Part shown: positions 7,594 to 48,098 of the stretch, one piece after another
Layout of the letters: each line of letters opens with the position of its first letter
Position numbering within the stretch: the first letter of the stretch is position 1
Virus record (IMG/VR): IMGVR_UViG_2721755728_000002
DNA length: 55,396 bases
Strand: one strand, 5' to 3'
Source: a virus
Taxonomy: Duplodnaviria > Heunggongvirae > Uroviricota > Caudoviricetes
The notes under the pieces: generated by a model
Told to the model about the DNA's origin: nothing
Database searches by the model: none
Seen by the model: the letters and a program-made list of their open reading frames with translations, nothing else
Program-made: the position numbers and the translations under genes

Positions 7594-8610
7594 ATGGCTA
7601 ACGCCTGGCTCAGATTATGGCATGACATGCCAAATGACCCTAAGTGGCGAACAATTGCCAGGGTGTCAGGGCAGCCAATTGCAACAGTGATGGCAGTGTA
7701 TATCCACCTCCTGGTGAGCGCGTCACGAAATGTCACGCGAGGTCACATTGATGTCACGACAGAAGATTTGGCAAGTGCGCTCGACGTGACAGAAGAGGTA
7801 ATTGATTCAATTTTGCAGACGATGCAGGGGCGGGTACTTGATGGTGATTTAATCACTGGATGGGAAAAACGCCAGGTGCTTAAAGAGGACAACGGCAATA
7901 TTTCGCAAACCGCAAAATCTCCGGCAGAGCGCAAGAGGGCGCAGCGTGAGAGGGAAAGAAAGCGGGAACAAAATGGCGATTGTCACGGCGCGTCACGAAA
8001 TGTCACGCACATGTCACGACAAGTCACGACAGATAAAGATACAGATACAGAATTAAACCCCACACATAACGCGCGCATGCGCGAGAGTGCTCCAACCGGT
8101 GAGTCGCATGGTGCGCCGTTGCAGACAGCCGAACCTGAATACCTGGACGGCCTGAGCGAACCGATCGGGAAATTTTCGATGACTACTGTCTGGCAGCCGT
8201 CGTCGGATTTTCGACAACGGGCAGCAGTGTGGGGTATGGCTCTGCCTGAGCCGGAATTTACACCTGCAGAGCTTGCCGCATTCCGGGATTACTGGATGGC
8301 GGAGGGGAAGGTTTTCACGCAGGTTCAGTGGGAGCAGAAATTTGCCCGCCACGTGCAGCACGTCAGGGCACAGGTAAAACCAGTCAGCAAGGGGGTAAGC
8401 CATGCAGCATCAGGTGGCACGGCATCACGGGCAGTTCAGGAAATCCGGGCAGCACGCGAACAGTGGGAACGTGACAACGGATTTATCAGCAACGGAAACG
8501 GCCTGGAAGCTGTGGGAGCTTATGGGGGAGGTGTATTCGAACCGCTGGACACAGAAGAACGGGGCCGCACCTTCGAAGCTCTGGATTGCCCAGATTGGCG
8601 CGATGACTGA
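7594..8610 (+). CDS. Replication initiator (lambda O-like)
   Basis: Gene preceding the P-like gene; contains two clusters of phased GTCACG iterons; ATG at 7594 with GAGG 5 nt upstream. Confidence 0.65.
   Translation: MANAWLRLWHDMPNDPKWRTIARVSGQPIATVMAVYIHLLVSASRNVTRGHIDVTTEDLASALDVTEEVIDSILQTMQGRVLDGDLITGWEKRQVLKEDNGNISQTAKSPAERKRAQRERERKREQNGDCHGASRNVTHMSRQVTTDKDTDTELNPTHNARMRESAPTGESHGAPLQTAEPEYLDGLSEPIGKFSMTTVWQPSSDFRQRAAVWGMALPEPEFTPAELAAFRDYWMAEGKVFTQVQWEQKFARHVQHVRAQVKPVSKGVSHAASGGTASRAVQEIRAAREQWERDNGFISNGNGLEAVGAYGGGVFEPLDTEERGRTFEALDCPDWRDD
7722..7758. repeat. Iteron cluster 1 (GTCACG/GTCACA x4, ~10-11 bp phasing)
   Basis: Repeats at 7722, 7732, 7742, 7753 inside the O-like gene. 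Confidence 0.55.
7982..8029. repeat. Iteron cluster 2 (GTCACG x5, ~10-11 bp phasing)
   Basis: Repeats at 7982, 7992, 8002, 8013, 8024 inside the O-like gene. Confidence 0.55.
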
Positions 8611-10316: not shown

Positions 10317-11511
<1,195 letters not shown>

Positions 11512-12349: not shown

Positions 12350-13219
12350 ATGACCACTATTACCAAAGAACGTATTGAATTGTTCATTAAAAATCCGGTT
12401 GAAAACGGGCTTACCCGTGGTGAACAAATGGAACTGGCACGGATTGCGCTGGCATCGCTGGAAGCAGAGCCGGTGGCAAAGATTATAGCTCATTACCCAT
12501 TAGGGGTTGACGTAGGCAAACAAAAATTCGTACAGGCCATTAGAGAGCTTCCTGACTTTGGCGGATATCTATTTGCCGCCCCTCCAGCGCCGATAGTGCC
12601 GGAAGAAATGTATTGGCAGGATGCGCCAGTTGAAGGCAGCAGCAAAGCGGCTGCATACGCTACAGGCTGGAACGATTGCCGCGAAGCCATGCTTCAGTCC
12701 GGAAACTTTCGGGAAAATAAAGATTCGTCAACCAATAATTTTCGGAAAATCCCGGAAGCGTCAACCAGCTCTCCGGTAACTCCGGCTCTTCTGCCTGGTG
12801 GTTTCACCATTGAGGAGGCGAAGGAATTACATGAAGACCTGGTACGCAGCCACATAAGCAAGGCCTTAAGTGGCGAAAAGATGAAAAAGAAAGATCGCGA
12901 TGCTGATTTGCGCTGGATTCATGGCGTTATAGTTCAGGCAGCGTGGTTTGTAAAAGCATCACTGGAGCAGAATGCACTATCGGGCAACTATCCGGTAACT
13001 CCGGATAGTTGGATAAGCTGTAGTGAGCGAATGCCGGATACCAAAACAGCCGTTCTTGTTGCCGTGGAGTTTGACAGGAAAGGTGACTGGCGAATGAAAT
13101 GGGCGACTTACATCCCGGGTCATCCTGACGCTAATGATGGGTGGATAATTCCTGGTGCGTCGTGGAAACCGTCACACTGGATGCCGCTACCAGAACCGCC
13201 GCAGGAGGTGCGCCAATGA
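12350..13219 (+). CDS. Hypothetical phage protein with DUF551-like C-terminus
   Basis: 289 aa; GGAG RBS. Confidence 0.55.
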   Translation: MTTITKERIELFIKNPVENGLTRGEQMELARIALASLEAEPVAKIIAHYPLGVDVGKQKFVQAIRELPDFGGYLFAAPPAPIVPEEMYWQDAPVEGSSKAAAYATGWNDCREAMLQSGNFRENKDSSTNNFRKIPEASTSSPVTPALLPGGFTIEEAKELHEDLVRSHISKALSGEKMKKKDRDADLRWIHGVIVQAAWFVKASLEQNALSGNYPVTPDSWISCSERMPDTKTAVLVAVEFDRKGDWRMKWATYIPGHPDANDGWIIPGASWKPSHWMPLPEPPQEVRQ

Positions 13220-13439: not shown

Positions 13440-13685
13440 ATTCATTACGATATGGGAATTCCCATATCGGGTAAAAACGGTTTGCGGGAAAAGGAGAGTT
13501 AAGTAGAATTGCTGCGGGTGCTTGAGGCTATCTGTCTCAGGCATGAACACCAAAAGGCAGATAGAGAAAAGCCCCAGTTAACATTACGCGTCCTGCAAGA
13601 CGCTTAACATTAATCTGAGGCCCAATCTATGTCTCACAAATGTAGGTTAGCCTCTTACGTGCCGAAAGGCAAGGAGAAGCAGGCT

Positions 13686-13841
13686 ATGAAGCAGCAAAAG
13701 GCGATGTTAATCGCCCTGATCGTCATCTGTTTAACCGTCATAGTGACGGCACTGGTAACGAGGAAAGACCTCTGCGAGGTACGAATCCGAACCGGCCAGA
13801 CGGAGGTCGCTGTCTTCACAGCTTACGAACCTGAGGAATAA
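13686..13841 (+). CDS. hok: Hok/Gef-family type I toxin
   Basis: 51 aa MKQQKAMLIALIVICLTVIVTALVTRKDLCEVRIRTGQTEVAVFTAYEPEE; typical Hok membrane peptide; in-frame upstream extension from 13629. Confidence 0.8.
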   Translation: MKQQKAMLIALIVICLTVIVTALVTRKDLCEVRIRTGQTEVAVFTAYEPEE

Positions 13842-13910
13842 GAGACCCGGCGGGGGAGAAATCCCTCGCCACCGCTGATGTGTCAGGCATCCTCAACGCA
13901 CCCGCACTTA

Positions 13911-13937
13911 ACCCGCTTCGGCGGGTTTTGTTTTTTC
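13911..13937 (+). terminator. Rho-independent terminator downstream of hok
   Basis: cccgc-ttcg-gcggg hairpin followed by ttttgtttttt. Confidence 0.5.
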
Positions 13938-14008: not shown

Positions 14009-14287
14009 ATGGCGCACGATACCAAATTTTACAATTCGGATAACTCTGCCGCCCCTGCCAGCAGGCACGGGCGGCGTTCCCGCACTTTCAAATCTGACTG
14101 GTTCCAGCATCCCCCATGCACTGAAGAACAGGCCGAGTGGCTAATTCAGTGCTACCGCAGACACGGATACGAGATTAAGAAAGCCCTCAGCCTCGATTAT
14201 CGTCACTGGATAATCTCCGTCAGGCTTCCTTACTCCGAACGACCACCGCGTCCGTCCCGCACATTCCAGCAACGCATCTGGAGGTAA
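14009..14287 (+). CDS. Hypothetical protein
   Basis: 92 aa from MAHDTKFYN; the longer GTG-started ORF from 13880 would span the terminator. Confidence 0.4.
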   Translation: MAHDTKFYNSDNSAAPASRHGRRSRTFKSDWFQHPPCTEEQAEWLIQCYRRHGYEIKKALSLDYRHWIISVRLPYSERPPRPSRTFQQRIWR

Positions 14288-14288
14288 C

Positions 14289-15344
14289 GTGCGGGTATTA
14301 CTTCGACCTGTTCTGGTACCGGAACTCGGGCTGGTGATCGTTAAGCCGGGCCGTGAATCCATGCCGGTATTCCACAATACCCGGGTACTGGTGGAGCCGG
14401 AACCGAAAAGCATGCGTAATCTGCCGTCCGGGGTCGTTCCTGCCGTTCGCCAGCCGCTGGCGGAGGATAAATCATTACTGCCATTTTTCAGCGACGAACG
14501 AGTGATTCGTGCTGCTGGTGGCGCTGGCGCATTGTCTGACTGGTTACTGCGCCATGTTAAATCCTGCCAGTGGCCACACGGTGATTATCACCACAGTGAA
14601 ACCGTCATTCACCGTTATGGTACCGGCGCAATGGTGTTGTGCTGGCACTGCGACAACCAGCTGCGCGACCAGACCTCCGAATCACTCGGGCAACTTGCTC
14701 ACCAAAACCTGTCTGCATGGATGATTGACGTCATACGCCATGCAATGAATGGCTCGCAGGAACGGGAATTATCGCTGGCTGAATTATCCTGGTGGGCGGT
14801 CCGCAATCAGGTGGCGGACGCGCTACCGGAAGCGGTATTACGTCGTTCGCTGGGGTTGCGTGCGGAAAAAATCCGCTCAATGTACCGTGAAAGCGACATC
14901 GTACCGGGAGAGCAGACCGCCACCAGCATACTGAAGCAGCGCACAAAAAATCTTGCGCCGCTGCCTCACGCCCACCAGCAAAACCCGCCACAGGAAAAGA
15001 CGGTGGTCAGCATTGCCGTTGATCCCGAGTCACCGGCTCAGTATCTCCAGCGCCAGAAATCACAACGGGAAGAGATGCCTGTATACACGCGCTGGGTAAA
15101 AACGCAGAAATGCATGACGTGTGGCAATCAGGCAGATGATCCGCATCACATCATTGGTCATGGACTGGGAGGGATGGGAACAAAGGCTGATGATTTGTTT
15201 GTTATTCCGCTGTGCCGTAAATGCCATAGCGAACTACACGCCGGGGTAAAAGATTTTGAAGAAAAACACGGCAGCCAGCTGTTGTTGCTGATTCGTTTTT
15301 TAATGCACGCGAGAAATTCGGGTGTTCTGAAGTGGAAAGCATAA
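14289..15344 (+). CDS. DUF968 (YdfU-like) protein with C-terminal HNH-like zinc-finger motif
   Basis: 351 aa; C-terminal CMTCGN...HHIIGH...CRKCH; GTG start with GGAGG RBS. Confidence 0.65.
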   Translation: MRVLLRPVLVPELGLVIVKPGRESMPVFHNTRVLVEPEPKSMRNLPSGVVPAVRQPLAEDKSLLPFFSDERVIRAAGGAGALSDWLLRHVKSCQWPHGDYHHSETVIHRYGTGAMVLCWHCDNQLRDQTSESLGQLAHQNLSAWMIDVIRHAMNGSQERELSLAELSWWAVRNQVADALPEAVLRRSLGLRAEKIRSMYRESDIVPGEQTATSILKQRTKNLAPLPHAHQQNPPQEKTVVSIAVDPESPAQYLQRQKSQREEMPVYTRWVKTQKCMTCGNQADDPHHIIGHGLGGMGTKADDLFVIPLCRKCHSELHAGVKDFEEKHGSQLLLLIRFLMHARNSGVLKWKA

Positions 15345-15710
15345 ATGACTGAACGCATAGAATTTGTTTTGCCTTACCCGCCAACGGTGAACACTTACTG
15401 GCGTCGTCGTGGCAGCACATATTTTGTATCAAAAGCCGGGGAGCGTTATCGCCGGGCAGTGGCGCTTATTGTTCGCCAGCAGCGGCTGAAATTAAGCCTG
15501 TCCGGAAGGTTGGCAATAAAAATTATTGCAGAACCACCGGATAAGCGCCGCCGTGACCTGGACAATATCCTGAAAGCACCACTGGATGCGTTGACGCATG
15601 CCGGACTTCTCATAGACGACGAGCAGTTTGATGAAATCAATATTGTGCGCGGTCAGCTCGTTCCTGGTGGGCGGCTGGGCGTGAAGATTTACAAAATTGA
15701 GAGTGAGTGA
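15345..15710 (+). CDS. rusA: Holliday junction resolvase RusA
   Basis: 121 aa, RusA family (LPYPPTVNTYW...DLDNILKAPLDAL). Confidence 0.85.
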   Translation: MTERIEFVLPYPPTVNTYWRRRGSTYFVSKAGERYRRAVALIVRQQRLKLSLSGRLAIKIIAEPPDKRRRDLDNILKAPLDALTHAGLLIDDEQFDEINIVRGQLVPGGRLGVKIYKIESE

Positions 15711-16261
15711 TCGTAAATATGATATACCCGGAAATTACAGGCAAAAGCGGCGAGCATTTACGTCTAAAAACGCTGGAAGCCGTCTGGATCCAGGGGAAAT
15801 TACGGATGTGGGGGCGTTGGTCGTATATAGGTGGTAGCAAAACAGGAAATATGTTCAATCAGTTGCTGGCATCCAAAAAACTGACAAAAACCGCAATCAA
15901 TGAAGCCCTGCGTAGAATCAGGGAGTCAGGGATTGATAAACCAGAGCTGGAAGCATTCTTGCGAGAGATGATCGCTGGCAGACAGAAGAGCTGGTTGTCT
16001 CACTGTACTGATGCAGAGGCGTTACGCATTGATGGGGTGATAAGTAAAGCGCTTGCACGTTATCCTGGATTGATTGATATCCTGCGGCAAAGATACGAAG
16101 GGCGGGGGATGAGTAAACGCAAAATGGCTGAATTGTTGAATGAGGTTCACCCTGAGTGGTGCTATGCAACATGCCGCAATCGTATAGATATGTGGCTGAG
16201 AATAGCTGAGTTTATTCTGTATCCACTGATGCGAGATGCATTTTCTTTTACTGACGCTTAG
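15707..16261 (+). CDS. Putative late-gene antiterminator (Q-like), family uncertain
   Basis: 184 aa after rusA, followed by a terminator-containing leader; assignment by position. Confidence 0.4.
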   Translation: MIVNMIYPEITGKSGEHLRLKTLEAVWIQGKLRMWGRWSYIGGSKTGNMFNQLLASKKLTKTAINEALRRIRESGIDKPELEAFLREMIAGRQKSWLSHCTDAEALRIDGVISKALARYPGLIDILRQRYEGRGMSKRKMAELLNEVHPEWCYATCRNRIDMWLRIAEFILYPLMRDAFSFTDA

Positions 16262-18020: not shown

Positions 18021-18096
18021 GGCCCTTTAGCTCAGTGGTGAGAGCGAGCGACTCATAATCGCCAGGTCGCTGGTTCAAATCCAGCAAGGGCCACCA
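18021..18096 (+). tRNA. tRNA with CAU anticodon (Ile2/ileX-like, or Met)
   Basis: 76 nt cloverleaf; acceptor stem GGCCCTT/AAGGGCC plus ACCA; anticodon loop CTCATAA; GGTTCAAATCC T-arm. Confidence 0.8.
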
Positions 18097-18196: not shown

Positions 18197-18273
18197 GCGT
18201 TGTTAGCTCAGCCGGACAGAGCAATTGCCTTCTAAGCAATCGGTCAGTGGTTCGACTCCACTACAACGCGCCA
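18197..18273 (+). tRNA. tRNA-Arg (UCU anticodon)
   Basis: 77 nt; acceptor GCGTTGT/ACAACGC plus GCCA; anticodon stem-loop ATTGC-CTTCTAA-GCAAT; GGTTCGACTCC T-arm. Confidence 0.8.
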
Positions 18274-40370: not shown

Positions 40371-40948
40371 ACACGGCAGCGGAAGCCATCCGTGCCCTGT
40401 CGATGCAGATGCCGGGATTCCGCCGTCAGATGAACGAAGGCTGGTACCAGATACGTATTGCCGGTGAAGACATGGCACCGGAGGCGGTGTATGCCCGCCT
40501 TCACGAACAACTGGGTGAGGGAACGGTCATCCATATTGTGCCGCGACTGGCCGGTGCAGGGAAAGGCGGACTGCAGATTGTGCTGGGGGCGGCAGCCATC
40601 GTGGGCTCTTTCTTCACCGCCGGCGCAACGATGGCGTTATGGGGTTCAGCCCTGGCAGCCGGCGGTTTTTCTGCCACCACGATGCTGTTTTCACTGGGGG
40701 CCAGCATGATACTGGGCGGTGTGGCCCAGATGCTGGCCCCGAAGGCAAAGACGCCGGAGTACAAAAGTACGGATAACGGTAAACAGAACACGTATTTTTC
40801 GTCACTGGACAACATGATTGCCCAGGGGAACCCGATGCCGGTGCCTTACGGTGAAATGCTGGTTGGCTCCCGGCGAATCTCCCAGGACATCAGCACCCGT
40901 GATGAAGGTGGTGGCGGGAAGGTGGTGGTTATCGGGCGGCAGGGGTAA
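40268..40948 (+). CDS. I: Tail assembly protein I
   Basis: Colinear with lambda I (ARICLYGDLQRFGRR..., GAAAIAGSFFTAGAT..., TDNGKQNTYFSSLDNM). Confidence 0.85.
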   Translation: MATTNAFCLASPPLARICLHGDLQRFGRRLSLYVNTAAEAIRALSMQMPGFRRQMNEGWYQIRIAGEDMAPEAVYARLHEQLGEGTVIHIVPRLAGAGKGGLQIVLGAAAIVGSFFTAGATMALWGSALAAGGFSATTMLFSLGASMILGGVAQMLAPKAKTPEYKSTDNGKQNTYFSSLDNMIAQGNPMPVPYGEMLVGSRRISQDISTRDEGGGGKVVVIGRQG

Positions 40949-43900
40949 AGCATAAAAAAATCCCGCAGTGTATGGAGGCTGCGGGAACAGAAAATGAAGA
41001 TTAACCACAGGGGGTTTTGTTTTTATTGGCCCGAAAAAACTGTAACGCCCGGGAATGATATCTGCCACGGGGCGTACAGAAAATGTGAAGAAATTCAGAA
41101 ATTTTATTCCGTCATGACACAGGCACCCTCCGGGGTGCCTGTCGTTTTTGGGGCATAAACAGATTCAGACATCAGACAGGAGAGGGGGACAGAGTGGGTA
41201 AAGGTGGCGGCAGGGCGCACACGCCGGTAGAGGCAAAGGACAATCTTAAGTCCACGCAGATGATGAGCGTGATTGACGCCATTGGTGAAGGGCCGATTGA
41301 AGGTCCGGTGAAGGGGCTGCAGAGTATTCTGGTGAACAAAACCCCGCTGACGGACACGGACGGTAATCCTGTGATACATGGTGTGACAGCGGTCTGGCGC
41401 GCCGGGGAGCAGGAGCAGACACCGCCGGAAGGTTTTGAGTCATCCGGCTCTGAAACCGCACTGGGCGTGGAAGTGACGAAGGCAAAGCCGGTGACGCGCA
41501 CCATTACGTCCGCGAACATTGACCGCCTGCGGGTCACCTTCGGGGTGCAGTCACTGGTGCAGACCACCTCACAGGGTGACCGTAACCCGGCATCCGTCCG
41601 CCTGCTGATTCAGCTGCAGCGTAACGGTAACTGGGTGACGGAAAAGGATGTCACCATTAACGGCAAGACCACCTCACAGTTCCTCGCTTCGGTGATTCTG
41701 GATAATCTGCCTCCCCGCCCCTTTAACATCCGGATGGTCAGGGAGACGGCGGACAGCACCACGGACCAGCTGCAGAATAAGACGCTCTGGTCGTCATACA
41801 CCGAAATCATCGATGTGAAACAGTGCTACCCGAACACGGCGATTGTGGGGCTGCAGGTGGATGCGGAGCAGTTTGGCGGTCAGCAGATGACGGTGAACTA
41901 CCATATCCGAGGTCGCATCATCCAGGTGCCGTCAAACTATGACCCGGAAAAACGCACGTACAGCGGCATCTGGGACGGCAGCCTGAAACCGGCATACAGC
42001 AACAACCCGGCCTGGTGCCTGTGGGACATGCTGACTCACCCGCGCTACGGCATGGGAAAACGTCTGGTGGCGGCGGATGTTGACAAGTGGGCGCTGTATG
42101 CCATTGCGCAGTACTGCGACCAGACGGTCCCGGATGGTTTCGGGGGCACAGAGCCGCGGATGACCTTTAATGCGTACCTGTCACAACAGCGTAAGGCATG
42201 GGATGTGCTCAGTGATTTCTGCTCGGCGATGCGCTGTATGCCGGTATGGAACGGCCAGACGCTGACGTTCGTTCAGGACCGCCCGTCGGATGTGGTGTGG
42301 CCGTACACCAACTGCGATGTGGTGGTGGATGATAACGGCGTGGGGTTTCGCTACAGCTTCAGCGCCCTGAAGGACCGCCACACGGCGGTGGAGGTGAATT
42401 ACACCGACCCGCAGAACGGCTGGCAGACCTCCACGGAACTGGTGGAAGACCCGGAAGCCATACTGCGCTACGGGCGCAACCTGCTGAAGATGGATGCGTT
42501 CGGTTGCACCAGTCGCGGTCAGGCCCACCGTGCCGGGCTGTGGGTGATAAAGACCGGACTGCTGGAAACGCAGACGGTGGATTTCACGCTCGGGTCACAG
42601 GGGCTGCGTCACACACCCGGTGACATTATTGAAATCTGTGATAACGACTATGCCGGGACCATGACCGGCGGACGTATCCTGTCCATCGATGCCGCCAGCC
42701 GCACCCTGACACTGGACCGTGAGGTGACCCTGCCGGAGACAGGTGCCGCCACGGTGAACCTGATTAACGGCAGCGGTAAGCCGGTGAGCGTGGCCATCAC
42801 TGCACACCCCGCGCCGGACCGGATACAGGTCAGCACCCTGCCTGATGGTGTGGAGACATACGGTGTATGGGGACTCTCCCTGCCGTCACTGCGTCGTCGC
42901 CTGTTCCGCTGTGTCTCCATCCGGGAAAACACGGACGGCACCTTTGCCATCACGGCGGTGCAGCACGTACCGGAAAAAGAAGCCATTGTGGATAACGGGG
43001 CCAGCTTTGAGCCACTGTCCGGTTCGCTGAACAGCGTCATCCCGCCGGCTGTGCAGCACCTGACGGTGGAGGTGAGCGCGGCTGACGGTCAGTATCTGGC
43101 ACAGGCGAAATGGGACACGCCGCGGGTGGTGAAGGGTGTGCGCTTCAGTCTGCGCCTGACCAGCGGAAGCGGAGAAGACAGCCGTCTGGTGACCACCGCC
43201 ATCACTGCGGATACAGAGCACCGTTTCAGTGGTCTGCCGCCCGGGGAATACACCCTGACAGTCAGGGCAATTAACAGTTATGGCCAGCAGGGCGAACCGG
43301 CCACCACCACGTTCAGGATTAATGCACCTGCGGTACCCGCCACGATTGAGCTGACACCGGGCTATTTTCAGATAACAGCGGTCCCGCGTCTTGCGGTGTA
43401 TGACCCGACGGTACAGTTTGAGTTCTGGTTTTCGGAGACAAAAATCGCAGACATATCTCAGGTGGAAACCTCTGCCCGTTATCTGGGGACCGGCAGTCAG
43501 TGGAGTGTATCCGGCCCGCACATTAAGCCCGGGAAGGATTTCTGGTTTTACGTGCGCAGCGTCAACCTGGTGGGGAAATCTGCGTTTGTGGAAGTCAGCG
43601 GGCAGCCCAGCAATGATGGTGAAGGGTATCTGGAATTTTTCCGGGAAAAAATAGGAAAACTGCATCTGGCTCAGGGGCTGTGGGAGCTGATAGACAACAG
43701 CCAGCTTGCGGATGAGATGGCGGAGATGAAGACCACCATCACCGAAACCCGCAATGAAATCACACAGACGGTCAGTAAAACGCTGGAGGACCAGAGCGCC
43801 ACCATACAGCAGATACAGCGCGTGCAGAAGGACACAAATGATGACCTTGCTGCACTTTACATGCTGAAGGTACAGAAAACAAAAAATGCCGGTGAAGACA

Positions 43901-46900
43901 TGGCACCGGAGGCGGTGTATGCCCGCCTTCACGAACAACTGGGTGAGGGAACGGTCATCCATATTGTGCCGCGACTGGCCGGTGCAGGGAAAGGCGGACT
44001 GCAGATTGTGCTGGGGGCGGCAGCCATCGTGGGCTCTTTCTTCACCGCCGGCGCAACGATGGCGTTATGGGGTTCAGCCCTGGCAGCCGGCGGTTTTTCT
44101 GCCACCACGATGCTGTTTTCACTGGGGGCCAGCATGATACTGGGCGGTGTGGCCCAGATGCTGGCCCCGAAGGCAAAGACGCCGGAGTACAAAAGTACGG
44201 ATAACGGTAAACAGAACACGTATTTTTCGTCACTGGACAACATGATTGCCCAGGGGAACCCGATGCCGGTGCCTTACGGTGAAATGCTGGTTGGCTCCCG
44301 GCGAATCTCCCAGGACATCAGCACCCGTGATGAAGGTGGTGGCGGGAAGGTGGTGGTTATCGGGCGGCAGGGGTAAAGCATAAAAAAATCCCGCAGTGTA
44401 TGGAGGCTGCGGGAACAGAAAATGAAGATTAACCACAGGGGGTTTTGTTTTTATTGGCCCGAAAAAACTGTAACGCCCGGGAATGATATCTGCCACGGGG
44501 CGTACAGAAAATGTGAAGAAATTCAGAAATTTTATTCCGTCATGACACAGGCACCCTCCGGGGTGCCTGTCGTTTTTGGGGCATAAACAGATTCAGACAT
44601 CAGACAGGAGAGGGGGACAGAGTGGGTAAAGGTGGCGGCAGGGCGCACACGCCGGTAGAGGCAAAGGACAATCTTAAGTCCACGCAGATGATGAGCGTGA
44701 TTGACGCCATTGGTGAAGGGCCGATTGAAGGTCCGGTGAAGGGGCTGCAGAGTATTCTGGTGAACAAAACCCCGCTGACGGACACGGACGGTAATCCTGT
44801 GATACATGGTGTGACAGCGGTCTGGCGCGCCGGGGAGCAGGAGCAGACACCGCCGGAAGGTTTTGAGTCATCCGGCTCTGAAACCGCACTGGGCGTGGAA
44901 GTGACGAAGGCAAAGCCGGTGACGCGCACCATTACGTCCGCGAACATTGACCGCCTGCGGGTCACCTTCGGGGTGCAGTCACTGGTGCAGACCACCTCAC
45001 AGGGTGACCGTAACCCGGCATCCGTCCGCCTGCTGATTCAGCTGCAGCGTAACGGTAACTGGGTGACGGAAAAGGATGTCACCATTAACGGCAAGACCAC
45101 CTCACAGTTCCTCGCTTCGGTGATTCTGGATAATCTGCCTCCCCGCCCCTTTAACATCCGGATGGTCAGGGAGACGGCGGACAGCACCACGGACCAGCTG
45201 CAGAATAAGACGCTCTGGTCGTCATACACCGAAATCATCGATGTGAAACAGTGCTACCCGAACACGGCGATTGTGGGGCTGCAGGTGGATGCGGAGCAGT
45301 TTGGCGGTCAGCAGATGACGGTGAACTACCATATCCGAGGTCGCATCATCCAGGTGCCGTCAAACTATGACCCGGAAAAACGCACGTACAGCGGCATCTG
45401 GGACGGCAGCCTGAAACCGGCATACAGCAACAACCCGGCCTGGTGCCTGTGGGACATGCTGACTCACCCGCGCTACGGCATGGGAAAACGTCTGGTGGCG
45501 GCGGATGTTGACAAGTGGGCGCTGTATGCCATTGCGCAGTACTGCGACCAGACGGTCCCGGATGGTTTCGGGGGCACAGAGCCGCGGATGACCTTTAATG
45601 CGTACCTGTCACAACAGCGTAAGGCATGGGATGTGCTCAGTGATTTCTGCTCGGCGATGCGCTGTATGCCGGTATGGAACGGCCAGACGCTGACGTTCGT
45701 TCAGGACCGCCCGTCGGATGTGGTGTGGCCGTACACCAACTGCGATGTGGTGGTGGATGATAACGGCGTGGGGTTTCGCTACAGCTTCAGCGCCCTGAAG
45801 GACCGCCACACGGCGGTGGAGGTGAATTACACCGACCCGCAGAACGGCTGGCAGACCTCCACGGAACTGGTGGAAGACCCGGAAGCCATACTGCGCTACG
45901 GGCGCAACCTGCTGAAGATGGATGCGTTCGGTTGCACCAGTCGCGGTCAGGCCCACCGTGCCGGGCTGTGGGTGATAAAGACCGGACTGCTGGAAACGCA
46001 GACGGTGGATTTCACGCTCGGGTCACAGGGGCTGCGTCACACACCCGGTGACATTATTGAAATCTGTGATAACGACTATGCCGGGACCATGACCGGCGGA
46101 CGTATCCTGTCCATCGATGCCGCCAGCCGCACCCTGACACTGGACCGTGAGGTGACCCTGCCGGAGACAGGTGCCGCCACGGTGAACCTGATTAACGGCA
46201 GCGGTAAGCCGGTGAGCGTGGCCATCACTGCACACCCCGCGCCGGACCGGATACAGGTCAGCACCCTGCCTGATGGTGTGGAGACATACGGTGTATGGGG
46301 ACTCTCCCTGCCGTCACTGCGTCGTCGCCTGTTCCGCTGTGTCTCCATCCGGGAAAACACGGACGGCACCTTTGCCATCACGGCGGTGCAGCACGTACCG
46401 GAAAAAGAAGCCATTGTGGATAACGGGGCCAGCTTTGAGCCACTGTCCGGTTCGCTGAACAGCGTCATCCCGCCGGCTGTGCAGCACCTGACGGTGGAGG
46501 TGAGCGCGGCTGACGGTCAGTATCTGGCACAGGCGAAATGGGACACGCCGCGGGTGGTGAAGGGTGTGCGCTTCAGTCTGCGCCTGACCAACGGAAGCGG
46601 AGAAGACAGCCGTCTGGTGACCACCGCCATCACTGCGGATACAGAGCATCGTTTCAGTGGTCTGCCGCTCGGGGAATACACCCTGACAGTCAGGGCAATT
46701 AACAGGTATGGCCAGCAGGGCGAACCGGCCACCACCACCTTCCGGATTAACGCGCCAGCAAAACCCGCCACCATTGAACTGACGCCGGGGTATTTTCAGA
46801 TAACGGCGGTCCCGCGTCTTGCGGTGTATGACCCGACGGTACAGTTTGAGTTCTGGTTTTCGGAGGCAAAAATCGCAGACACATCTCAGGTGGAAACCTC

Positions 46901-47318
46901 TGCCCGTTATCTGGGGACCGGCAGTCAGTGGAGTGTATCCGGCCCGCACATTAAGCCCGGGAAGGATTTCTGGTTTTACGTGCGCAGCGTCAACCTGGTG
47001 GGGAAATCTGCGTTTGTGGAAGTCAGCGGGCAGCCCAGCAATGATGGTGAAGGGTATCTGGAATTTTTCCGGGAAAAAATAGGAAAACTGCATCTGGCTC
47101 AGGGGCTATGGGAGCTGATAGACAACAGCCAGCTTGCGGATGAGATGGCGGAGATGAAGACCACCATCACCGAAACCCGCAATGAAATCACACAGACGGT
47201 CAGTAAAACGCTGGAAGACCAGAGCGCCACCATTCAGCAGATACAGCGCGTGCAGAAGGACACAAATGATGACCTGGCTGCGCTGTACATGCTGAAGGTT
47301 CAAAAAACGAAAGACGGC
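40463..47318 (+). repeat. Tandem direct repeat, 2 x ~3428 bp (I 3' part + intergenic + J 5' ~2.7 kb)
   Basis: Six-frame ORFs recur with 3428-bp offset (e.g. 40458/43886, 41194/44622); proximal ~2.7 kb appears identical, distal ~730 bp differs at scattered positions. Confidence 0.8.
41194..44376 (+). CDS. Chimeric ORF: J N-terminal ~890 aa fused in frame to I C-terminal ~170 aa
   Basis: Lambda J-like through ...LKVQKTK, then switches to I sequence AGEDMAPEAVYARL... and ends with the I C-terminus. Confidence 0.7.
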   Translation: MGKGGGRAHTPVEAKDNLKSTQMMSVIDAIGEGPIEGPVKGLQSILVNKTPLTDTDGNPVIHGVTAVWRAGEQEQTPPEGFESSGSETALGVEVTKAKPVTRTITSANIDRLRVTFGVQSLVQTTSQGDRNPASVRLLIQLQRNGNWVTEKDVTINGKTTSQFLASVILDNLPPRPFNIRMVRETADSTTDQLQNKTLWSSYTEIIDVKQCYPNTAIVGLQVDAEQFGGQQMTVNYHIRGRIIQVPSNYDPEKRTYSGIWDGSLKPAYSNNPAWCLWDMLTHPRYGMGKRLVAADVDKWALYAIAQYCDQTVPDGFGGTEPRMTFNAYLSQQRKAWDVLSDFCSAMRCMPVWNGQTLTFVQDRPSDVVWPYTNCDVVVDDNGVGFRYSFSALKDRHTAVEVNYTDPQNGWQTSTELVEDPEAILRYGRNLLKMDAFGCTSRGQAHRAGLWVIKTGLLETQTVDFTLGSQGLRHTPGDIIEICDNDYAGTMTGGRILSIDAASRTLTLDREVTLPETGAATVNLINGSGKPVSVAITAHPAPDRIQVSTLPDGVETYGVWGLSLPSLRRRLFRCVSIRENTDGTFAITAVQHVPEKEAIVDNGASFEPLSGSLNSVIPPAVQHLTVEVSAADGQYLAQAKWDTPRVVKGVRFSLRLTSGSGEDSRLVTTAITADTEHRFSGLPPGEYTLTVRAINSYGQQGEPATTTFRINAPAVPATIELTPGYFQITAVPRLAVYDPTVQFEFWFSETKIADISQVETSARYLGTGSQWSVSGPHIKPGKDFWFYVRSVNLVGKSAFVEVSGQPSNDGEGYLEFFREKIGKLHLAQGLWELIDNSQLADEMAEMKTTITETRNEITQTVSKTLEDQSATIQQIQRVQKDTNDDLAALYMLKVQKTKNAGEDMAPEAVYARLHEQLGEGTVIHIVPRLAGAGKGGLQIVLGAAAIVGSFFTAGATMALWGSALAAGGFSATTMLFSLGASMILGGVAQMLAPKAKTPEYKSTDNGKQNTYFSSLDNMIAQGNPMPVPYGEMLVGSRRISQDISTRDEGGGGKVVVIGRQG

Positions 47319-48098
47319 ATACCCTATGTTGCCGGGATTGGAGCGGGGATTGAGGATACTGATGGCCAGTCACTGAGCAACATACTGCTGCTGGCTGACC
47401 GTATCGCGATGATAAATCCGGAGAGCGGCAACAGCACGCCGTTATTTGTGGCGCAGGGGAATCAGCTGTTCATGAACGACGTGTTCCTGAAACGACTGTT
47501 TGCGGTGAGTATCACGTCATCCGGCAACCCCCCGACGTTTTCCCTGACGCCGGAAGGGAAGCTGACAGCCAGGAACGCGGATATCAGCGGAGCAATTACC
47601 GCGAATACCGGCACGCTCAATAATGTCACCATTAACGAGAACTGTGTCATCAGAGGGAAACTGTCTGCAAACCAGATTGAAGGCGACCTGGTGAAGACGG
47701 TGGGGAAAGCCTTTCCCCGGAATAACAGTTATGCCAGCGGGACGGTAACCGTCACAGTTTACGATGACCAGGGCTTCGACCGGCAGATTATCATTCCCCC
47801 GGTGCTGTTTCGCGGGACGAAACACCAGAATTTCAACAGCCCGAATCAGCAGTCGTACTGGTATTCCACCTGTAAGCTGCAGGTGCTGAAGAACGGGGTT
47901 GAGATTTTCCATGAACCGGCAACGGATGTCAGCCGGGTGTTCTCATCGGTGATAGATATGCCGGCAGGGCGGGGTCATGTCACCCTGACGTTTAATGTGT
48001 CGTCGGCCGGTGCGAACAACTGGACGCCGACAACGTACATCAGTGATTTACTGGTTGTGGTCATGAAAAAATCCACGGCAGGGATCAGTATCAGCTGA
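44622..48098 (+). CDS. J: Tail tip / host specificity protein J
   Basis: 1158 aa colinear with lambda J along its full length; GTG start with AGGAGAGGGGG RBS. Confidence 0.9.

Follow-up and report, generated by a model that had tools for sequence, protein, structure and literature searches.

Several described proteins come close to YdfU, the DUF968 protein of lambda-like Escherichia coli prophages. Jablonska et al. (2017) placed DUF968 (YdfU) and DUF1364 (YbcO, PDB 3g27) in group 7 of the His-Me finger superfamily and noted RusA and Q as neighbours (PMC5714182), and a 2016 treble-clef zinc-finger classification predicts a nuclease-like function for DUF1364 (PMC4999995). Ref of phage P1 is a RecA-dependent HNH nuclease (PMC4713147, PMC3973344), PhiNM1 Gp16, an HNHc_6 relative, is by experiment a nickase that binds RecA (PMC12817073), and HNH modules of the DUF968 type occur fused to recombination proteins (PMC4118853). 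At the equivalent place, the lambda nin region encodes Rap, a His-Me nuclease, and Orf, a mediator. Here we analyse a ydfU-type gene, together with the 92-codon open reading frame (ORF) directly 5' of it, in a 55,396-nucleotide stretch of viral DNA (IMG/VR record IMGVR_UViG_2721755728_000002), referred to below as the window. The gene is the long-catalogued ydfU (DUF968) of lambda-like E. coli prophages, an ordinary gene whose HNH nature has already been published. We put at roughly 0.55 the probability that its product is a delayed-early HNH endonuclease or nickase of the nin region that cuts phage recombination or replication intermediates beside RusA, with the 92-residue protein as an accessory factor.

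An initial annotation, made from the letters of the sequence, had assigned the 351-residue protein to DUF968. Pfam bears this out with a DUF968 (PF06147) match of 215.4 bits against a cut-off of 27.8 (E=7e-64; amino acids 160-343). HNHc_6 (PF16784) is matched as well (30.3 bits against a cut-off of 26.6, amino acids 260-327), over profile positions 113-184 of 204 only, that is, the HNH core, and PHROG 96 'HNH endonuclease' is matched over the full length of the protein (E=8e-167). Searches of NCBIfam and PADLOC returned no match for the large protein or for the small ORF. Annotated E. coli prophage proteins match the large protein with 100% identity, and DNA of 100% identity is found in the prophages of several E. 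coli genomes, including that of O26:H11 strain 11368, where the pair is annotated as 'hypothetical protein' and 'DUF968 domain-containing protein'. Related DNA is present in 4605 of 5426 complete E. coli genomes (~85%), with full-length matches in about a third and up to 10 sites per genome; Shiga toxin (Stx)-converting phages also carry it, and there the large gene is named ydfU.

The initial annotation had further singled out a C-terminal Cys/His cluster, read it as an HNH-type zinc finger and proposed structure prediction as a check, with the lack of an HNH fold as the refuting outcome; that outcome did not arise. The cluster resolves into C275-M-T-C278-G-N, H286-H287-I-I-G-H291, C309-R-K-C312-H313 and H317, and its HNH reading is supported by the DUF968, HNHc_6 and PHROG 96 matches, by a profile match to Ref and by the conservation of the catalytic residues. 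For the fold we aligned 35 full-length homologues (25-96% identity), the source being a search of 1.84 billion representative proteins that gave 1959 hits at E<=1e-3. The resulting AlphaFold2 model has a mean predicted local distance difference test score (pLDDT) of 88.1 and contains a C-terminal beta-beta-alpha unit, with strands at 284-287 and 305-308 and a helix at 310-318, followed by further helices. From sequence and model we assign C275, C278, C309 and C312 as zinc ligands and H286, H287, D302, H313 and H317 as catalytic and metal residues. Among 115 homologues D302 never varies, 111-112 retain each of H286, H287, H313 and H317, and 111 have the complete HHDHH set. C275 does not vary either; 105-109 retain C278, C309 and a C or H at position 312, and the cysteines at 278, 309 and 312 are lost jointly in a few homologues that still keep HHDHH. 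YdfU displays two hallmarks of the His-Me finger superfamily, namely the beta-beta-alpha-metal fold and the catalytic and metal residues, which are kept in 111-115 of the 115 homologues.

The closest folds to this domain appear to be the RecA-dependent nuclease Ref and the prophage protein YbcO. A profile alignment joins P1 Ref (PDB 3plw) to the YdfU core CxxC...HH...PLCRxHH with 80% probability (E 1.4e-5). The N-terminus of Ref is disordered and basic, whereas that of YdfU is a folded domain of 225 amino acids, and the Ref gene sits elsewhere in P1, under C1 control. YbcO (DLP12 and phage 82) consists of the HNH domain alone, 96 amino acids without the 260-residue N-terminal part of YdfU, and has 'AH' where YdfU has 'HH'; a sequence search of the PDB gave weak matches to YbcO and McrA only (E 0.5-1.1). 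The Gram-positive Orf(NinB)-HNH fusions, such as phiETA Orf20 and PhiNM1 Gp16, share the HNH core and lie among early or nin-like genes associated with recombination. The Gram-positive DUF968/HNHc_6 proteins (Curtis et al. 2014) and Gp16 have a NinB/Orf-like N-terminal part, unlike YdfU, in which such a likeness was looked for and is absent. Lambda NinG (Rap) resembles YdfU in being a His-Me finger nuclease encoded in the nin region 5' of Q, and it acts on branched recombination intermediates. We rejected a sequence relation between the two, as it comes down to an 18-residue CxxC motif with an hhalign probability of 6%.

The YdfU of the K-12 prophage Qin (b1560) has the same architecture and the same GTG start, is 349 rather than 351 residues long, and is 84-90% identical in its N-terminal part. 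The surroundings are alike too: an unannotated ORF of 92 codons ends one nucleotide 5' of the GTG, within a neighbourhood that runs hokD ... ydfU ... Q. The K-12 protein differs in carrying another HNH allele (58% identity; CxxH-H in K-12, CxxC-H here). In Qin, moreover, rem stands between hokD and the small ORF and there is no rusA by ydfU, whereas in the window rem was looked for and is missing and rusA follows directly.

YdfU is predicted to be tripartite, with a family-specific N-terminal domain of ~225 amino acids, a disordered linker and the C-terminal zinc-stabilised HNH domain. The N-terminal domain is modelled with block-mean pLDDT values of ~85-97 up to residue 190 and lower ones beyond, and residues 1-225 have no match among solved structures, Pfam families or PDB sequence profiles. 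It holds a second Cys/His group that looks like a structural zinc site: among the 115 homologues, C93, C118 and position 121 (C or H) are each kept in all 115, position 101 (H or C) in 113 and D122 in 106, and the model places the group on a beta-beta-alpha element made up of two strands, 105-110 and 113-118, and a helix at 119-125. An internal duplication relating this finger to the C-terminal HNH domain was considered. The two align in register in hhalign without significance (probability ~1%, E 0.04-0.08), so the duplication is unproven and no more than an idea.

The linker coincides with a mosaic joint. Compared with the K-12 and O157 alleles, the protein is 84-99% identical as far as residue ~247 and 57-58% identical beyond it; nucleotide identity to the K-12 allele falls from 83-90% to 58-67% from 15009 onward, and of the related E. 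coli and phage matches roughly half end at window position ~15036. This drop in identity and these match ends, which place a recombination joint at ~15009-15036 (about residue 247), argue that the HNH module is swapped there as a unit. The module circulates in two alleles, CxxC-H and CxxH-H, which share 57-58% identity and are joined to N-terminal domains that scarcely differ; it is also found behind other N-termini, namely a LexA DNA-binding domain, truncated Dam or MT-A70. One such protein, P0326, has 240 amino acids and joins the LexA DNA-binding domain to the DUF968 HNH module. We read as assembly or deletion chimeras, and set aside, the N-terminal YdfU fragments found on tail-fibre or J domains (P0267, P0295, P0296, P0346) and two internally duplicated versions of 411 and 449 amino acids (P0001, P0007).

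The layout of the gene pair is as first described, a 92-codon ORF (14009-14287) abutted by a 351-codon ORF with a GTG start (14289-15344). The small ORF runs from ATG 14009-14011 to TAA 14285-14287 and the large one from GTG 14289-14291 to TAA 15342-15344, which leaves a single base, C14288, between them. The Shine-Dalgarno sequence GGAGG (14280-14284) lies within the final two codons of the small ORF, 4 nucleotides 5' of the GTG, and the two genes are predicted to be translationally coupled here. The junction ATCTGGAGGTAA[C/T]GTG is kept, and ydfU follows the small ORF, in 75 of 75 viral contigs that have the small ORF and enough downstream sequence, these contigs being close relatives of one another; K-12 and three further E. 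coli alleles have the one-nucleotide spacing as well. Distant homologues support the GTG start, since they begin at the same aligned position (M-R-x-L-L), in at least one case (locus L023) with ATG. For the small gene, a 135-residue version starting at GTG 13880 is unlikely. It would cross the terminator-like hairpin that follows hok/sok, at 13910-13927, which makes ATG 14009 the credible start.

Its substitution pattern indicates that the small ORF is a real gene under purifying selection. Among five diverged E. coli alleles, the pairwise ratio of nonsynonymous to synonymous substitution rates (dN/dS) is 0.12-0.26, with ~0.05-0.2 in the core (amino acids 27-92) and higher values in the first 26 codons. 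PHROG 1212 matches the protein (E=1.6e-35), amino acids 27-92 aligning with profile positions 1-66 of 66, while a Pfam search of the ORF gave no match. Residues 1-26 form a disordered basic extension that is peculiar to the Escherichia lineage. There follow a conserved beta-alpha-beta-beta core (amino acids 29-74) and a conserved tail motif, LPxSxxxPRxxRT[FY]QQxxWR; the E. coli protein is basic, with an isoelectric point (pI) of 10.1. Distant homologues (from Klebsiella, Enterobacter, Citrobacter and Pluralibacter, among others) have 66-67 amino acids, start at the position of residue 27 and have the tail motif in common; a second homologue search with the small-ORF profile mostly returned the same E. 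coli clusters.

The small gene is not rem. Several phage records appear to have put the label 'rem' on this position by mistake: BLASTP finds no alignment between the 92-residue protein and K-12 Rem (b1561, 83 amino acids) at E<=100, and in K-12 rem is a gene of its own, flanked by hokD and by a copy of the small ORF that is 78% identical. Comparisons with lambda NinD, NinE, NinF and NinH likewise showed no relation. The MG1655 copy lies directly 5' of ydfU (8307..8585, minus strand, of locus L002; NC_000913.3 ~1644306-1644584), where the NC_000913.3 annotation has no feature between ydfU and rem; in other genomes the Prokaryotic Genome Annotation Pipeline (PGAP) annotates the ORF. Given the purifying selection, this suggests a gene missed in the MG1655 annotation.

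How closely the two genes are tied was assessed in 80 species-representative Enterobacterales ydfU loci, gathered with a 10-sequence alignment. A small-ORF homologue is present in 15 of them and in none of the other 65. It adjoins ydfU in Escherichia, Shigella and Klebsiella; in 6 of the 15 loci rusA stands between the two, and other lineages have an ANT/pRha antirepressor gene 5' of ydfU instead. The initial annotation had called the 92-codon ORF a partner. As far as a real gene, translationally coupled to ydfU in the window, is meant, this holds up; as an obligate partner it does not, and we take the small gene, from its presence in 15 of 80 loci and the rusA sometimes interposed, to be a frequent, lineage-restricted companion of the module and not an obligate subunit. 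In three loci outside Escherichia (L003 3409-3801, L004 46-438, L023 2038-2445) a LexA DNA-binding-domain protein of 130-135 amino acids is encoded directly 5' of the small ORF.

A Q-type gene lies just 3' of ydfU in all 80 loci, drawn from several unrelated families (DUF1133/Phage_antitermQ, Phage_antiter_Q, Antiterm), and in 59 of them the same strand carries rusA no more than 2 kb away. In metagenomic homologues of 29-50% identity, too, ydfU stands between replication and late-control genes. The window itself is a lambdoid prophage in which integrase and excisionase, repressors, DnaT-like and P replication genes, IS5, hok/sok and the small ORF are followed by ydfU, rusA, a Q-like gene, a DNA methylase, two tRNAs, lysis genes, a small HNH gene with terminase, and head and tail genes. 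This gene order places the pair in the nin region, where the initial annotation had located it while leaving its function there unclear. The positions of the individual features are collected in Table 1.

Table 1. Positions in the window of the gene pair, the predicted parts of YdfU and the flanking features.
Feature	Position	Strand	Basis
Terminator-like hairpin (13910-13927) and T-run, left bound of the pair	13910..13937	+	Terminator scan; hok/sok assignment inferred from position
Small upstream gene, 92 aa, PHROG 1212	14009..14287	+	
Predicted translational-coupling junction: GGAGG 14280-14284, TAA 14285-14287, C, GTG 14289-14291	14280..14291	+	Sequence; conservation
ydfU-type gene, 351 aa, DUF968 family	14289..15344	+	Pfam, PHROG 96, identical E. 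coli DNA
N-terminal family-specific domain, aa 1-225	14289..14963	+	
Probable second metal site: C93, H101, C118, C121, then D122-N123	14565..14657	+	Conservation and predicted secondary structure
Flexible linker, aa 226-262, disordered 228-241	14964..15074	+	pLDDT <50 at aa 228-241
C-terminal zinc-stabilised HNH / His-Me finger nuclease domain, aa 263-351	15075..15341	+	
rusA, Holliday-junction resolvase; ATG right after the ydfU stop	15345..15710	+	Pfam RusA
Q-type late antiterminator (DUF1133 / Phage_antitermQ)	15707..16261	+	Pfam

The most likely role of YdfU, judging from its domains and neighbours, would be that of a recombination or DNA-processing nuclease. We propose a metal-dependent DNA endonuclease or nickase in which H287 would act as the general base and H286, H313 and H317 would hold the catalytic metal, with the N-terminal domain providing recognition of a substrate or a partner. 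The enzyme would cut phage recombination or replication intermediates beside RusA, much as Rap and Orf work in the lambda nin region, and it would presumably be silent in lysogens and produced only when antitermination is at work. Most likely the 92-residue protein, its synthesis matched to that of YdfU, serves as an accessory or modulating factor. For an anti-defence role, which the initial annotation had named beside recombination, we found no support, the synteny being with recombination and late-control genes; the lack of a PADLOC match does not bear on this question, since PADLOC covers defence systems and not anti-defence proteins.

A number of observations weigh against this proposal. 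The synteny with rusA and Q shows co-regulation and not a common pathway. The catalytic histidines are gone in 4 of the 115 homologues, and the persistence of these proteins implies a non-catalytic role in at least some members. Foldseek against the PDB gave no significant match, the weak top ones being HNH proteins, and a search of the PDB with the family profile gave none. The likeness to Ref is limited to ~60-80 residues of the HNH core, and the Ref family model PF16786 (RecA_dep_nuc) does not match YdfU at E<=0.01. The substrate is a guess, because the N-terminal domain, which would set specificity, has no recognisable relative, and literature searches for YdfU found no experiment on the protein.

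The main rival is suggested by the fact that Ref, the nearest fold neighbour, and Gp16 both work with RecA. YdfU would then be a RecA-dependent nuclease of the Ref/Gp16 type that cuts displacement loops (D-loops) at RecA filaments, acting on the host chromosome during induction, as a means of host shut-down or a boost to recombination, rather than on phage intermediates with RusA. We consider this unlikely: YdfU stays below the PF16786 threshold and has neither the basic disordered N-terminal region of Ref nor the NinB-like domain of Gp16, and RecA dependence is not something that can be read from a sequence. Whether the mode is Ref-like and RecA-directed or one of partnership with RusA bears on the recombination by which lambdoid prophages become the mosaics that disseminate Shiga toxin, and on whether YdfU expression harms the host.

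A bolder version of the nuclease proposal, which we regard as quite doubtful, would make YdfU a two-metal-site enzyme. Its N-terminal domain would be a degenerate second treble-clef or HNH-like finger that reads a specific recombination intermediate or a host protein, for instance RecA or the single-stranded DNA-binding protein (SSB), and the tail (PR..RT[FY]QQ..WR) of the co-translated protein with its 66-residue core would be an adaptor that switches on or directs the nuclease. If true, YdfU would represent a new class of recombination nuclease, encoded by phages, gated by a partner and carried by most E. coli genomes.

The tight adjacency of the two genes, their apparent translational coupling and the conserved junction, with ydfU after the small ORF in every checkable viral contig, are also what one would expect of a nuclease-immunity pair akin to a toxin-antitoxin system, in which binding of the 92-residue protein would block the HNH nuclease until its activity is called for. 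The pair also lies among toxin-antitoxin cassettes, which in the window means hok/sok and in other alleles relBE or parDE, and this fits as well. We nevertheless hold such a pair to be very unlikely. Strict co-occurrence fails, with no partner at 65 of the 80 ydfU loci, and rusA separates the two genes in several genera. The small protein is basic, unlike the acidic immunity proteins of HNH toxins that mimic DNA. Neither protein has a PADLOC match, the small gene comes first, and the Shine-Dalgarno sequence is weak.

Harder still to credit is a non-catalytic YdfU, a DNA-binding or regulatory factor that works with Q in late expression and whose HNH domain is merely a treble-clef zinc finger. 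An Arsenophonus homologue is annotated as 'phage transcriptional regulator' (PMC5714182), and the invariable position 5' of Q and the four homologues without catalytic histidines agree with such a role. The full catalytic set, including the D302 found in all 115 homologues, is nevertheless conserved well past the needs of a structural finger, and the Q families downstream vary while YdfU stays constant.

Free-standing phage HNH genes are often homing-type or terminase-associated, and the exchange of the HNH module as a mosaic unit is in keeping with such a reading, but a selfish homing endonuclease or a terminase-associated HNH protein for cos cleavage is the least credible reading of all, the first being at odds with a large conserved N-terminal domain and a fixed, not sporadic, place between replication genes and Q in all 80 loci, and the second with the separate small HNH gene (PF01844) by the terminase small-subunit gene that fills the packaging role. 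Whether YdfU is taken as half of an immunity pair, as a homing or packaging enzyme or as a pure regulator, at least one test goes against the reading; a recombination or DNA-processing nuclease is the one we prefer.

Several other features of the window deserve mention. A complete hok/sok type I toxin-antitoxin cassette occupies 13516-13937, just 5' of the gene pair; Rfam recognises sok at 13516-13691 (120 bits), and the Hok ORF, with a Pfam match, ends at 13841. Other alleles have relBE or parDE in its place. An IS5-family transposase gene (DDE_Tnp_1 and DUF772; 10349-11365, plus strand) lies among the early genes, 3' of the replication genes. An intact ORF of 289 codons follows at 12350-13219 (plus strand), with a DUF551 domain at its end; in strain C3, which otherwise matches the query region exactly, the annotation here shows fragments and a short DUF551 protein. 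After the DNA methylase there are two tRNA genes (18021-18093 and 18197-18270, plus strand), annotated as Ile and Arg in the identical prophages and typical of Stx-type lambdoid phages. The terminase genes lie ~10 kb 3' of ydfU and do not adjoin it. Just 5' of the genes for the small and large subunits is the second, small HNH gene (PF01844, 121 amino acids; 25008-25373, plus strand), a packaging arrangement of the HK97 gp74 type. Finally, a tandem direct duplication of ~3.4 kb at ~40450-47330 has an offset of 3428 nucleotides and 92-100% identity in 200-nucleotide windows, mostly 99-100%, and could be real or an assembly artefact. It gives two ORFs for the tail-tip protein J, one at 41194-44376 (1060 amino acids) without the C-terminal receptor-binding domains and a complete one at 44622-48098 (1158 amino acids).

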